A DNA stretch of 64,000 bases from UHGV virus genome UHGV-0351052, one strand, 5' to 3'. Positions 57,957 through 64,000 of the stretch are shown piece by piece (position 1 is the first letter of the stretch; each line of letters starts with the position of its first letter). A program made the translations under genes and the position numbers. This DNA is from a virus. The notes under the pieces are model-generated. The model made no database searches. It was not told the origin of the DNA and saw only the letters and a list, made by a program, of their open reading frames with translations.

Positions 57957-59544
<1,588 letters not shown>

Positions 59545-59552
59545 AATAAAAT

Positions 59553-59566
59553 GGGCCTTGCGGCCC
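59553..59566 (-). terminator. GNRA hairpin (GGGCC-GCAA-GGCCC) plus T-rich tract between nrdB and denA
   Basis: Minus strand GGGCCGCAAGGCCC followed by ATTTTATTATG (denA start). Confidence 0.55.
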
Positions 59567-59571
59567 ACTCC

Positions 59572-60074
59572 TTAAAAGTATTTTTTAAAACTCATCATAA
59601 CTTTATCATCAACATCATTATCAATCTGTGCAACAAGGTAAGATGACAGTTCTACTTCTTGTGGCGCGGATTGAACATTATCAGAATTAAGATATTCACG
59701 AATCCAAGGATACGGATGTTTAACCGGAGCATCGGTAATTGGGCATGGAAGACCACACTGTTTCATACGAGATACAGTTAAGTAATCAATAAAGCTCCAC
59801 ATGCTATTTGTATTTAATCCAGGAACATCGCCATCTTTAAATAAATGAACTGCCCAATCTTTTTCTTGGCGGTTAACTTCCATGAAAATATCAACTGCTT
59901 CTTGTTCACACTCTTGAGCAATTTTAACCCATTCATCACCATCAGTGCCAAGTTGAAGTTGACGAATAATATATTGAGTGCCTTTAAGGTGAAGCTGCTC
60001 ATCACGTGCAATGAACTTCATAATCTTGGCATTACCTTCCATGATTTCCATGTTCTTATGGAAGTTAAAGGTAC
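59572..60074 (-). CDS. nrdB: Ribonucleotide reductase small subunit NrdB, exon 2
   Basis: Encodes ...MEIMEGNAKIMKFIARDEQLH... (R2 conserved region) to C-terminus; boundary inferred by restoring the conserved YVSFAC-TFNF junction; uncertain by a few nt. Confidence 0.8.
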
Positions 60075-60668
60075 CGTTATGTTCAATTGAGCTCGCTAAT
60101 TCTCAACCCGTTCTCTTATGAACTGCTACATATTACTATGCAGACCAGACTATATCACAATCCCAGAGGGATTCTCCCCATTTCGAGTCGCTTGACCCTA
60201 CGTCCGAAGACTAGTCGTTGAACCTTGCTTTGCAATTGTCGCCGTGCCATCGTTTATATGTTGATGGTGATAAATCTTTCTTATCACAATATGGACAATT
60301 CAATTGAATTCTATTTGGATTTAATTTGCATCTGTCATTATGTTTTAAATAAAATCCAGGACCTTTACCAATGTGACCGCAGAAATCACATGTGATTTCT
60401 TTTTGTGCAGGATGGGTCCCGTTCTTAACCATTTCTAATGTTTTTGCTGATGTTCTTTTCTTATGGTCTTCCATCAGAATCTTTAGGTATAGGTCCGTTA
60501 GCATCTATCCAAATTTTTCTATAGTTCAATTGTGCATCCTCTTAAAAGTATAATCATATTATACTAATTAAAGGTGCAAGCAAAACCTTGGCTGCTAGTT
60601 TTCCTATAAAGGACTTTCCAGCAATTAAAGGAGTTTTCGATAAACGTTACCGTTTAAAGGCGCATTTT
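60075..60668 (-). mobile_element. Group I self-splicing intron in nrdB (about 594 nt) carrying a degenerate endonuclease ORF
   Basis: Interrupts nrdB between exon 1 (ending ...YVSFA + U) and exon 2; exon 1 ends in U and intron ends in G as expected for group I; boundaries inferred by protein alignment, not by structure modelling. Confidence 0.75.
60211..60504 (-). CDS. Intron-encoded truncated endonuclease-like ORF (I-TevIII-like remnant with Cys-rich zinc-finger-like segment)
   Basis: 97 aa with CDFCGH...CPYCDK; lies wholly within the intron. Confidence 0.65.
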   Translation of the reverse strand: MLTDLYLKILMEDHKKRTSAKTLEMVKNGTHPAQKEITCDFCGHIGKGPGFYLKHNDRCKLNPNRIQLNCPYCDKKDLSPSTYKRWHGDNCKARFND

Positions 60669-61344
60669 ACGCAAAAGATACATAAAAACGAATAGCTTCT
60701 AAGGCATTAATAACGTGCAAACAGAGGTAAAGAGATTTCATTAAAGCACGTTTAGCTTCGGCTTCTTGTTTAATAGCTCGGTTTAAACGAAAGACAGCAT
60801 CAGGAGATTCTTTAGCTAGTTCTACAAATTCTTTAGCATTTTCCCATTCACGGGTTTTAATCAGAACATCATCATAATAGCGTCCAATAGATTCGGCTCG
60901 TTTCATGATTGCTTCATCTAATACAATCTCATCAAATACCTTTGACGGATCAGTATAAAGATTTCGCATGATATGTGTATATGAACGGCTGTGAATAGTT
61001 TCACTAAAAGTCCACGTAGCAACCCATGTATCAAGGCTTGGGTCTGAAATTAATGACATAAGTACAGCAGACGGCGCACGACCCTGAATGCTATCCAAAA
61101 GTGATTGATACTTCAGATTATTAGTAAAAATATTTTGCTGATACTGAGGAAGCTTATTAAACTGTGCAGCATCCATCATTAAGTTTACTTCTTCGGGACG
61201 CCAGAAAAAACTGATCTGTCGCTCAATGAGTTCTTCAAATACTCGATGTCGTTGAATATCATATCGAGCTAAACCTAATCCAGAACCAAAGAACATCGGT
61301 TCATTCAAAACATCAACTGGATTTGTATTAAAAACTGTGCTCAT
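60669..61344 (-). CDS. nrdB: Ribonucleotide reductase small subunit NrdB, exon 1
   Basis: Begins MSTVFNTNPVDVLNEPMFFGSG...; ends at conserved EAIRFYVSFA. Confidence 0.85.
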
Positions 61345-61395
61345 AATTTTTCCTCTTAGTTAATAGATAGTGACTCGTCCGTGAGTCAAATTATA

Positions 61396-63660
61396 TCATA
61401 ATTTACAGGATGAACAGTCTTCAGCTTTTGGAGTTTCTATTTCATAATCATCAGTACCAGAACCATCACGGGTATTATGATAATAGAAATTTTTAATGCC
61501 ATAATACCATCCGTATAGCATGTCATCAATCATTATTGACATTGGAACCTTTCCTTTTGGAAAAATCTGCGGGTCATAATATGTATTCGCTGAAGCCGAT
61601 TGACATATCCATTTCAGCATAATAGCTACCTGCGTAAGATAAGGTTTATTACCTTTCTTAGCTAATTTCCATGTATAATCATAGAGGTCTATGTTATGCT
61701 CAATATTGGGCACGACTTGATTAAAGGAGCCCTCTTTTGATTCTTTAACAGAGACTGGTCCACGTGGAGGCTCGATACCGTTTGTACTGTTAGAAACTTG
61801 GGAAGATGACTCACACGGCATAAGTGCTGATAATGTGCTATTACGGATGCCAAAGAGCTTAAGGTCTTCCCGCAGCGACGACCAGTCACAAACGTATTTT
61901 GGAGCTGCGATTTGGTCAATCTTTTTATTGTACCAGTCGATAGGTAATTCGCCTCGAGACCAACGAGTGTCTGAATAATATTCGCAAGGTCCTTTTTCTT
62001 TGGCGAGCTTAATGGATGCTTTAATGAGTCCATACTGTAATCTCTCAAATAGTTCATGTGTTAAATCGTTAGCATCTTCATAAGAAGCAAAGTTACTTGC
62101 CAGCCAAGCTGCATAGTTAGTAACACCTACACCAAGGTTACGACGCTTTTTAGCTTTTTCTGCTTCAGGAACTGGATATCCTTGGTAATCCAAAAGATTA
62201 TCAAGAGCACGAACCTGGACTTCTGCCAATTCATTAATTTTATCTTGGTCTTGCCAGTCAAAATTATCCAGTACGAAGGCAGAGAGAGTACAGAGCCCAA
62301 TTTCAGCATCAGGACTATTCACATCATTTGTTGGAATAGCAATTTCACAGCACAAGTTACTCTGACGAATAGGTGCCTTTTCACGAATAAACGGAGTATA
62401 GTTATTCGTATTATCAATGAACTGCACATAAATCCTTGCTGTTCCTGAACGTTCAGTCATGAGCAATTCAAATAGTTCACGGGCTTTAATACGCTTTTTA
62501 CGAATATTAGGGTCTTTTTCTGCTGCTTCGTATAATTCACGGAAACGGTCTTGGTCTTTAAAATAAGAATAATAAAGCTCTCCGCCCATTTCATGGGGAC
62601 TGAACAAAGTAATGTAATCGTTCTTTCCAAAACGTTCCATCATCAAATCATTCAGTTGAACACCATAATCCATATGACGAATGCGGTTTTCTTCTACGCC
62701 TTTGTTATTTTTCAAAACAAGAAGATTTTCAACTTCCAAATGCCAAATAGGATAATAAGCAGTAGCAGCGCCGCCACGAATTCCACCCTGTGAGCATGAT
62801 TTAACAGCAGTCTGAAAATGTTTCCAAAAAGGAATAACACCAGTATGGCGTACTTCACCCATGCCAATCTTAGAACCTTCGGCACGAATCATACCAACGT
62901 TAATACCGATTCCAGCTCGTTTGGAAATATATTCAACAATTGAAGCAGAAGCCTTATTGATAGACTTCAGTGAATCGCCTGCCTCAATAACAACGCATGA
63001 ACTAAACTGCCGAGTTGGAGTACGGCAACCAGCCATAATAGGAGTTGGTAATGAAATCTGTCGAGTAGATACTGCTTCATAAAAACGGATAACATGTTTT
63101 AATCTATCAACAGGTTCATCTTGATGCAGTGCCATTCCAATAGCCATAAATGCAAACTGTGGAGTTTCATAAATTTGACCAGTGGTTTTATCTTTAACTA
63201 AATATTTTTCTTTTAATTGCATCGCCCCGGAATAAGTAAATTCCATATCCCGTTCGTGCTTAATTTTTGATTCTAAAAATGTAATTTCTTCTGCTGAATA
63301 TTTTGACAATAATTCAGGGTCATATTTACCTTCATTTACACAGTAAGAAATATGGTCAATAAATGAACGTGGTTCATACTGCCCATAAACATGCTTACGA
63401 AGAGCGAACATTAAACAGCGTGCAGCTACATATTGATAATCAGGTTCTTCAACCGAAATAGAATTCGCAGCGGCCTTAATGACAATAGTCTGAATATCAT
63501 CAGTTGTCATTCCATCACGGAGATAAGATTTAATATTTTCATATAATTCATAAGGATCTACTGATGTTCCTTCAGCTGCCCAAGATAAAACTTTAATAAT
63601 TTTTTGTGGGTCAAAGCTCTGAGAAACACCACTACTTTTGATAACATTAATTAATTGCAT
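61396..63660 (-). CDS. nrdA: Ribonucleotide reductase large subunit NrdA
   Basis: Start at MQLINVIKSSGVSQSFDPQKI gives 754 aa; track ORF has a 32-codon upstream extension that overlaps the divergent promoter region. Confidence 0.95.
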   Translation of the reverse strand: MQLINVIKSSGVSQSFDPQKIIKVLSWAAEGTSVDPYELYENIKSYLRDGMTTDDIQTIVIKAAANSISVEEPDYQYVAARCLMFALRKHVYGQYEPRSFIDHISYCVNEGKYDPELLSKYSAEEITFLESKIKHERDMEFTYSGAMQLKEKYLVKDKTTGQIYETPQFAFMAIGMALHQDEPVDRLKHVIRFYEAVSTRQISLPTPIMAGCRTPTRQFSSCVVIEAGDSLKSINKASASIVEYISKRAGIGINVGMIRAEGSKIGMGEVRHTGVIPFWKHFQTAVKSCSQGGIRGGAATAYYPIWHLEVENLLVLKNNKGVEENRIRHMDYGVQLNDLMMERFGKNDYITLFSPHEMGGELYYSYFKDQDRFRELYEAAEKDPNIRKKRIKARELFELLMTERSGTARIYVQFIDNTNNYTPFIREKAPIRQSNLCCEIAIPTNDVNSPDAEIGLCTLSAFVLDNFDWQDQDKINELAEVQVRALDNLLDYQGYPVPEAEKAKKRRNLGVGVTNYAAWLASNFASYEDANDLTHELFERLQYGLIKASIKLAKEKGPCEYYSDTRWSRGELPIDWYNKKIDQIAAPKYVCDWSSLREDLKLFGIRNSTLSALMPCESSSQVSNSTNGIEPPRGPVSVKESKEGSFNQVVPNIEHNIDLYDYTWKLAKKGNKPYLTQVAIMLKWICQSASANTYYDPQIFPKGKVPMSIMIDDMLYGWYYGIKNFYYHNTRDGSGTDDYEIETPKAEDCSSCKL

Positions 63661-63685
63661 AAGTCCTCTGTAGTAAGTTACCCCA

Positions 63686-63693
63686 TATAAATA
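63686..63693 (+). promoter_or_regulatory. Late promoter box TATAAATA upstream of the I-TevI-like gene
   Basis: Exact TATAAATA, followed by AGGAGA SD and ATG at 63716. Confidence 0.55.
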
Positions 63694-63715
63694 TAATTTT
63701 ATATAGGAGAATATA

Positions 63716-64000
63716 ATGAAATCTGGAATATATGCTATTATAAACACTAAAACCAATAAGCACTATATAGGAAGTGCAATTAATTTTGAAGAACGATGGA
63801 AACGACACTTTAAAGATTTAGATAATGGAAATCATCATTCAATAAAGCTGCAGCGTTCTTATAATAAGCATGGGAAAGATGCTTTCGTATGTAAAATCAT
63901 AGAAGAACTTCCATACGAAAAATCTATCATTATTGAACGTGAAAATTATTGGATACATGAATATGACTCAAAGGAAAATGGGTATAATATAGCAGACGCA
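63716..64000 (+). CDS. I-TevI-like GIY-YIG homing endonuclease, N-terminal part (partial, runs off window end)
   Basis: Hand translation MKSGIYAIINTKTNKHYIGSAINFEERWKRHFKDLDNGNHHSIKLQRSYNKHGKDAFVCKIIEELPYEKSIIIERENYWIHEYDSKENGYNIADA: GIY...YIG, R, H, E and N catalytic-domain landmarks, very similar to I-TevI as I recall it. Confidence 0.8.
   Translation, partial: MKSGIYAIINTKTNKHYIGSAINFEERWKRHFKDLDNGNHHSIKLQRSYNKHGKDAFVCKIIEELPYEKSIIIERENYWIHEYDSKENGYNIADA

Follow-up and report, generated by a model that had tools for sequence, protein, structure and literature searches.

Results and discussion

Organization of the nrdB locus

The window, i.e. the whole 64,000-nt stretch of virus genome UHGV-0351052 that was analysed, comes from a T4-like phage of the genus Tequatrovirus, and its last 25 kb are ~ 96% identical to phages MLP2 and HP3. 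The minus strand of this region carries nrdA, a split nrdB, denA and rnlA, in that order. The genes were taken from the ORF list, and their order was compared with the T4 and RB3 annotation.

63756-61396, minus strand: nrdA
60669-61344, minus strand: nrdB exon 1, codons 1-225 and the first base (T) of Cys226; last base U
60075-60668, minus strand: group I intron, IA-type, 594 nt; begins AAAAUGCGCC, ends ...CAUAACG, with a terminal G
59572-60074, minus strand: nrdB exon 2, the GT that completes Cys226, codons 227-392 and the stop
59568-59134, minus strand: denA, downstream of the split nrdB
59117-57957, minus strand: rnlA, after denA

The nrdA stop and the nrdB start are separated by 51 nt. In T4, nrdB.1 and mobE lie between nrdA and nrdB, whereas the window has neither; no mobE adjoins nrdB in the ORF list of the window.

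Intron boundaries and the spliced R2 product

The exon 1 ORF (61344-60667, minus strand) reads ...EAIRFYVSFA and then meets a stop. The sequence-only reading had split the R2 sequence after this peptide, with a gap of about 594 nt, and had placed the junctions at 60668/60669 and 60074/60075, perhaps off by a few nucleotides. We defined the intron span from the alignment of T4, RB3 and 215Ecol030PP, the T4 and RB3 annotation, Rfam, and the empty site in HP3. Compared with the intronless HP3 gene, neither junction (60669/60668 and 60075/60074) can be slid by one base. Because the boundaries are fixed to the base, the intervening sequence is exactly 60668-60075 (594 nt, minus strand); the proposed gap and, by collinearity with HP3, the proposed junctions proved to be exact. 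The insertion site follows the T of the Cys codon in YVSFA-C-TFNF. The final base of exon 1 is U (60669), and that of the intron is G (60075). The last four bases of the exon, GCGU, are able to form P1 with the internal guide GCGC at intron positions 6-9, with a U-G pair at the splice site. Once the interval is removed, the conserved frame is restored, and the relative HP3 has no insertion at this site.

The spliced nrdB (61344-60669 joined to 60074-59572) is a 1179-nt open frame with a 392-aa product. The predicted ligated exon junction (60669/60074) reads ...TTTTGCGT/GTACCTTT..., and exon 2, after the split Cys codon (T/GT) is joined, reads C-TFNFHKNMEIMEGNAKI.... The intronless HP3 nrdB, also 1179 nt long, is 94.8% identical to the spliced gene and collinear with it, with zero gaps. 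The product matched Pfam Ribonuc_red_sm over residues 33-335 (126 bits, cut-off 33.6, E = 1.9e-36) and E. coli R2 (1piy_A) over residues 3-388 (E = 3e-125). The R2 alignment is unbroken across the junction, where YVSFACTFNF faces YVSFACSFAF of E. coli R2. Agreement of this kind is well outside what chance would produce.

The iron/radical motifs of R2 in exon 1 are SETIHSRSY and NALEAIRF; exon 2 carries the iron-ligand motif MEGNAKIMKFIARDEQLH. The aligned R2 motifs in the product are SETIHSRSY, NALEAIRFYVSFAC and MEGNAKI..ARDE.LH, which, by analogy with E. coli R2, would hold the iron ligands and Tyr122. The intron is inserted between two of the most conserved R2 motifs, ALEAIRFYVSFA and MEGNAKI..ARDE.LH; therefore, one active site needs both halves of nrdB. 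The spliced gene is predicted to encode a full-length class Ia R2, with a ferritin-like sequence that includes the di-iron ligands and the radical tyrosine.

The ribozyme core

That the interruption of nrdB is a group I intron, as had been claimed from the letters alone, is supported by its boundaries, by the core helices and by homology to the introns of T4 and RB3. We located the 5' half of the core by complementarity and from the Rfam alignment of the identical sequence in Escherichia phage vB_vPM_PD112 (MH837626), and the 3' half from the Rfam alignment with a complementarity check.

60590-60663, minus strand: 5' half of the ribozyme core
60656-60651/60646-60641, minus strand: P2
60633-60628, minus strand: P3, 5' strand
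60623-60618/60598-60593, minus strand: P4
60613-60610/60605-60602, minus strand: P5
60592-60590, minus strand: P6, 5' strand
60075-60224, minus strand: 3' half of the ribozyme core
60224-60222, minus strand: P6, 3' strand
60216-60212/60152-60148, minus strand: P7
60211-60202, minus strand: P7.1, GUC-UUCG-GAC
60198-60185, minus strand: P7.2, GGGUC-AAGC-GACUC
60179-60174, minus strand: P3, 3' strand
60172-60160, minus strand: P8
60143-60126, minus strand: P9
60123-60110, minus strand: P9.1
60106-60087, minus strand: P9.2

All located helices from P2 to P9.2 are fully complementary, and the minimum-free-energy fold of the ORF-deleted intron recovers P2, P4, P5 and P6. In the Rfam alignment, P7.1 and P7.2 form an insertion between P7 and P3'. 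The presence of these two hairpins, which mark subgroup IA, places the intron in that subgroup; the T4 GenBank note for the nrdB intron likewise reads 'group 1A intron'.

Rfam at gathering thresholds gave no matches in the whole window. In a local scan, Intron_gpI (RF00028) matched 60362-60126 (minus strand). The score, 33 bits (E = 1.7e-6), falls short of the gathering cut-off of 50, as the model is split by the ORF inserted in the P6 loop. The covariance search thus recovered one half of the core: the P6 3' strand, P7, P3', P8 and P9 aligned well, but the 5' half aligned poorly, and it is recognised only by homology or with the ORF loop removed. The ORF-less PD112 allele, in contrast, matched the full model with 68.6 bits (E = 2e-17). 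Over the Rfam match, the window and PD112 are identical save for 4 nt in an unaligned hairpin loop; the window reaches the gathering score only by proxy, because the scored columns of PD112 are identical to its own.

The 3' core (intron positions ~ 440-594) matched, in blastn, group I introns of Twort, of other Staphylococcus and Bacillus phages, and of td-carrying phages. The td (I-TevI), nrdD/sunY (I-TevII) and Twort introns belong to the same ribozyme class, with the conserved P7-P3'-P8-P7' core. Other T-even group I introns, too, have endonuclease ORFs looped out of peripheral helices (PMC2988022).

Comparison with the T4 and RB3 introns

The intron is about 97-99% identical to the annotated nrdB introns of T4, RB3 and relatives. 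By the same anchors, the intron lengths are 598 nt in T4, 1091 nt in RB3 and 594 nt in the window. The nrdB region (exons and intron) matched 955 phage records; coverage reaches at least 80% in 118 of them, and for the intron alone it likewise reaches at least 80% in 118 records. In the T4 record (NC_000866), nrdB is annotated as a two-piece join (T4p230/T4p231).

T4 shares with the window the insertion site, the ribozyme (~ 97-98% identical) and a 491-nt deletion with its breakpoints. Relative to T4, the window lacks 6 nt in a hairpin loop and has one additional nucleotide in L5 and one near the 3' end. The 3' part of the window intron is of the RB3-type haplotype, including a compensated P9 stem, unlike T4. 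Between the T4 and window/RB3 haplotypes, P9 shows one compensated change, from G-C to A-U, and one change from G-C to G-U; the other helices are invariant among the compared alleles and are uninformative in this respect. Every difference between the window and T4 introns is either compensated or confined to loops or the ORF, and RB3 shares most of them. RB3 (KM606994) shares the insertion site and the ribozyme, and the window agrees with it at almost all positions that vary between RB3 and T4. Within its 1091 nt, the RB3 intron encodes an active HNH/zinc-finger endonuclease of 269 aa, annotated as full-length I-TevIII; 491 nt of the RB3 intron are missing from the window. One substitution, C to T at 60085, 3' of P9.2, is unique to the window.

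PD112 has a core and an insertion site identical to those of the window. Its whole ORF is gone via a deletion between ACAATTG direct repeats, which leaves a 304-nt intron, whereas the window keeps a zinc-finger remnant.

The I-TevIII remnant

Three features describe what is left of the endonuclease gene.

60211-60504, minus strand: 97-aa Cys-rich ORF, defective I-TevIII; its stop TAG lies inside the P7 5' strand
60464-60529, minus strand: stump of the original I-TevIII frame, with a TTG start as in RB3, then LNYRKIWIDANGPIPKDSDG
60467-60472, minus strand: junction of the 491-nt deletion relative to RB3, GATTCTGATG/GAAGACC

The 97-aa ORF consists of 11 out-of-frame leader residues (MLTDLYLKILM) and RB3 I-TevIII residues 183-269; its C-terminal 87 residues are identical to those of RB3. 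When aligned to the full-length intron endonuclease, its residues 9-97 correspond to residues 181-269 (of 269) of RB3 I-TevIII with 98% identity. This match and the T4-type deletion bear out the proposal that the ORF is the remnant of a homing endonuclease. The whole ORF (1-97/97) matched PHROG 27406 'endonuclease' with E = 5.5e-67; a second match was to positions 180-269/269 of PHROG 12324. The T4 ORF of the same length differs from it at two residues (E12D and T93A) and is labelled in GenBank 'defective DNA endonuclease encoded by group 1A intron in nrdB'.

The ORF keeps the dimerisation region and two zinc fingers, CDFC...HNDRC and CPYC...HGDNC, which fit the CX2C-X12-13-HX3C definition (PMC1865063). 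No HNH match was found in the 97-aa ORF with Pfam, whereas RB3 I-TevIII has HNH_3 at residues 4-48. A sub-threshold Pfam match of the ORF to the PyrI_C metal-binding domain (E = 0.048) was taken as generic resemblance of Cys clusters. The junction of the deletion falls inside GAAGA(A/C)C, a short direct repeat, and the breakpoints in the window are those in T4 according to the alignments. The deletion took RB3 I-TevIII residues ~ 21-182, and the HNH motif EIHHKDGNRENNDLDNLMCLSIQEHYDIH falls wholly inside it. Since 491 nt is not a multiple of three, the original I-TevIII frame is broken: the stump that starts with TTG at 60529 is frameshifted at the junction and stops two codons later. From its sequence, the ORF appears to be an I-TevIII remnant by descent and not a functional HNH endonuclease.

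As reported by Robbins et al. (PMC1865063), the N-terminal HNH domain of I-TevIII is catalytic, and the C-terminal zinc fingers are required for DNA binding. The smallest DNA-binding construct comprised residues 166-269, whereas residues 194-269 bound zinc and formed dimers but gave no DNA shift (PMC1865063). The remnant starts at residue 183; it should therefore be catalytically dead and is probably a poor DNA binder.

Hairpin and promoter motifs upstream of the ORF

The P6 loop holds a hairpin upstream of the ORF.

60535-60578, minus strand: P6-loop hairpin in which AAGAGGA, the ribosome-binding site of the endonuclease, pairs with sequence upstream of it

The predicted fold has -14.9 kcal/mol (z = -4.3). 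Its loop is 3 nt long in the window and 9 nt in T4 and RB3, where it holds TATAAATA, which by its letters would be the T4 late-promoter motif. The window thus has a 6-nt gap in the hairpin loop relative to T4, RB3 and Manna. A candidate MotA-box-like TTTGCTTGC, with TATAAT 12 bp after it, is located immediately upstream of the hairpin and inside it; the TATAAT is kept in the window despite the 6-nt loss of TATAAATA. We considered the gap as decay specific to deleted alleles and rejected this, because ESh24 shares the gap and has an intact, full-length I-TevIII; the gap is an independent polymorphism. Such endonuclease ORFs are known to have a late or middle promoter and a hairpin that hides the ribosome-binding site (PMC2988022). 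A scan for sigma-70 promoters and terminators, with T4 middle and late promoters outside its model, gave no excess over shuffled sequences (14 vs 10.1 ± 3.6) and was set aside. A match to rseX on the plus strand inside the ORF (22 bits, E = 4) was dismissed as chance.

Diversity of the deleted alleles

A search with the 60-mer of the deletion junction found the deletion allele in at least 18 single-piece records; the 60-mer counts are lower bounds, as BLAST joined both halves of the probe in full-length alleles. The whole-gene search added five one-piece alleles (F26, FL23, FL44, Lv5cm and G8). The 491-nt deletion occurs on two 3' haplotypes, one in T4, 215Ecol030PP and Manna, and the other, which is that of RB3, in the window, F26, FL23, Lv5cm and G8. 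This distribution points to recombination among alleles or, less likely, to recurrent deletion. The window allele is stranded in that it has no mobE neighbour, has lost the late-promoter motif and joins the T4-type deletion to a haplotype of the RB3 type. It is conceivable, if improbable, that it reflects recurrent deletion at the GAAGA repeat; recombination between existing alleles would be the more ordinary account.

Some deleted alleles have further indels: -2 nt in F26, FL23, G8 and Lv5cm, +3 nt in Lv5cm, and -1 nt in 215Ecol030PP. These three independent indels are all N-terminal to the zinc fingers, at repeats or a homopolymer. Because they fall upstream, the finger region is open in all eight deletion alleles compared.

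Alternative explanations

The insert could also stay in the RNA, with R2 assembled from two polypeptides of 225 aa and 159 aa (the latter starting at MEIMEGNAKI). The nrdA gene of Aeromonas phage Aeh1, split by mobE, is reportedly such a gene in pieces. An ATG at 60051 does open a 159-aa ORF, and many GenBank records annotate two separate nrdB CDSs; those annotations, however, look like the output of automatic gene callers that are blind to introns. There is no obvious Shine-Dalgarno sequence before 60051, and a start at this position would lose the eight conserved codons C-TFNFHKN, although they align to both E. coli R2 and the intronless HP3. Moreover, the insert has a group I core and ~ 97-98% identity to the self-splicing T4 intron (PMC2790892), which makes assembly from two polypeptides very unlikely. 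Scarcely credible is an nrdB pseudogene, produced by insertion or an assembly error, with the host reductase used instead. A linear reading of the nrdB frame is indeed broken by stops. Each exon is nevertheless intact, free of frameshifts and stops, and collinear with an intronless allele that looks functional; the group I boundaries of the insertion are precise, and the arrangement recurs in about 118 independent phage genomes. The same boundaries and the same ~ 118 genomes led us to reject a group II intron, a transposon and a sequencing error; an intein was rejected as the insert is not an in-frame ORF.

It is also conceivable, if improbable, that the 97-aa remnant is kept for a function as a small dimerising protein, for instance as a dominant-negative partner of co-infecting I-TevIII or as a DNA-binding regulator. 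The finger part is open from some ATG in 8/8 deletion alleles, which gives a faint hint of retention, and the three independent indels (-2, +3 and -1 nt) spare it. Zinc binding and dimerisation are retained by the last 76 residues of I-TevIII (PMC1865063); if the remnant were functional, it might poison full-length I-TevIII dimers from co-infecting RB3-type phages. On the other hand, at 97-99% identity the alleles are too similar for purifying selection to be seen, and the indels occurred at mutation hotspots (repeats and a homopolymer). The remnant, starting at residue 183, is shorter than the minimal binder (166C), and 194C showed no DNA binding. Its start codon and leader come from another frame, its ribosome-binding site is locked in the hairpin, the late-promoter motif is deleted in the window, and PD112 does without the entire ORF.

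Splicing and homing

The locus is almost certainly a T4-type nrdB group I intron with a defective I-TevIII, in a Tequatrovirus phage. This reading draws on features observed directly, namely the boundaries, the restored frame, the T4/RB3 homology, the group I core and the deletion. The nrdB gene would be transcribed through the intron as a precursor, in which the 594-nt intron would fold into an IA-type group I ribozyme and remove itself by two guanosine-initiated transesterifications. In the first step, cleavage would occur after the exon 1 U paired to the internal guide. In the second step, the exons would be ligated after the terminal G, with the split Cys codon joined, and the ligated mRNA would be translated into the 392-aa R2 subunit. 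The T4 nrdB intron is self-splicing (PMC2790892). We infer self-splicing of the window allele from its ~ 97-98% identity to the T4 intron, and inactivity of the remnant endonuclease from the T4 and RB3 experiments.

T4 I-TevIII is dead by internal deletion, whereas the RB3 enzyme is intact and mobile (PMC1865063, PMC2790892, PMC2988022). In homing experiments, the T4 intron, which has the same deletion as the window, reached < 0.1% vs 4.3% for RB3 (PMC1865063). By analogy, the window intron should not be self-homing: the frameshifting 491-nt deletion took the HNH domain, so the intron would be unable to home alone. In T4, the free-standing endonuclease MobE, encoded nearby, moves the defunct intron into genomes that lack it (PMC2790892). 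Because mobE is absent from the window, its intron copy appears to have no means of spreading besides ordinary recombination.

Implications

The intron with its defective I-TevIII is already known; it is a textbook T4 element in a T4 relative. From the late 1980s on, the T4 nrdB intron with the deleted I-TevIII has served as a model of self-splicing and homing (for the intron with defective I-TevIII, see Eddy & Gold 1991, cited in PMC2988022), and near-identical alleles are in GenBank. The sequence-only reading was silent on this long history.

The main value of the finding is for annotation. In many deposited relatives, nrdB is listed as two CDSs or under 'hypothetical proteins', and the intron, owing to the ORF in its loop, goes entirely undetected by Rfam at the default threshold. 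A proper annotation would be join(61344..60669, 60074..59572) on the minus strand, to which an intron feature and a pseudogene for the defective I-TevIII should be added. The alleles compared here also illustrate a decay series, from the full-length endonuclease gene through the 491-nt deletion and small indels to the ORF-less 304-nt intron. The window also shows the element persisting where mobE, the helper by which the T4 copy is mobilised, is absent.

Deletions within the nrdB intron

A natural nrdB intron lacking an ORF was found in phage vB_vPM_PD112 (MH837626; positions 1203-1506 of the PD112 locus, L004). It is 304 nt long and scored 68.6 bits against the Rfam Intron_gpI model. The whole I-TevIII gene is missing, the deletion lying between two ACAATTG direct repeats. 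The GenBank annotation of MH837626 records only two partial NrdB CDSs.

The T4-type 491-nt deletion is carried by two distinct 3′ intron haplotypes, with seven linked differences separating the window (60126-60228) from T4, 215Ecol030PP and Manna. The deletion junction also differs, reading GAAGAAC in T4 and GAAGACC in the window. Together, the two haplotypes and the junction difference imply that alleles have recombined or that deletion at the GAAGA repeat has happened more than once.

Compared to T4, RB3 and Manna, the window intron has a 6-nt gap at ~ 60561 (intron position 108/109), which leaves only 3 of the 9 nt in the loop of the RBS-hiding hairpin and eliminates the late-promoter motif TATAAATA. 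Since ESh24 combines the identical gap with a full-length I-TevIII, the gap is an independent polymorphism.

Variable region of exon 1

Just 5′ of the intron, the exon 1 patch KEFVELAKESPDAVFRLNRAIKQEAEAKRA (60720-60830, codons ~ 172-200) is RB3-like. Here the window diverges strongly from T4 and is four codons longer (KDMVEYYKDQGLILADKDVEQRAKRD), whereas the flanks are near-identical. The patch aligns poorly with E. coli R2, suggesting a variable surface loop. It is possibly a mosaic produced by recombination or co-conversion.

Flanking genes and the nrdA-nrdB spacer

The features flanking nrdB were as follows:
59134-59568, minus strand, denA mechanical ORF, 144 aa, GTG start
61396-63756, minus strand, nrdA mechanical ORF, 786 aa, TTG start
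61388-61371, terminator-like hairpin TGACTCACGGACGAGTCA, inside the 51-nt nrdA-nrdB spacer

At 411 nt (136 aa), the annotated denA homologues in RB3 and other phages are shorter than the window ORF, although the T4 RefSeq gene is 435 nt; the mechanical nrdA ORF likewise exceeds its annotated homologues (2265 nt). The true starts of denA and nrdA are probably internal ATGs, giving MKEIATEY... and MQLINVIK..., respectively.

Both mobE and nrdB.1 are absent from the interval that separates the nrdA stop codon from the start of nrdB (61345-61395). In contrast, T4 has both genes between nrdA and nrdB, RB3 has mobE there, and in Manna, F26, FL23, Lv5cm and G8 a CDS of > 1.5 kb, annotated as ‘hypothetical protein/endonuclease’, adjoins nrdB. 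The defunct intron of the window therefore has no adjacent helper endonuclease.

Intron distribution

Over 25 kb, the closest relatives of the window are HP3 and MLP2 (~ 96%). The RefSeq taxonomy line of HP3 reads ‘Rosemountvirus’, apparently at odds with its T4-like gene content. On inspection, HP3 nrdB (NC_041919; positions 1063-2241 of the HP3 locus, L011) was intronless. With a near relative lacking the nrdB intron, intron presence therefore does not track overall genome relatedness.
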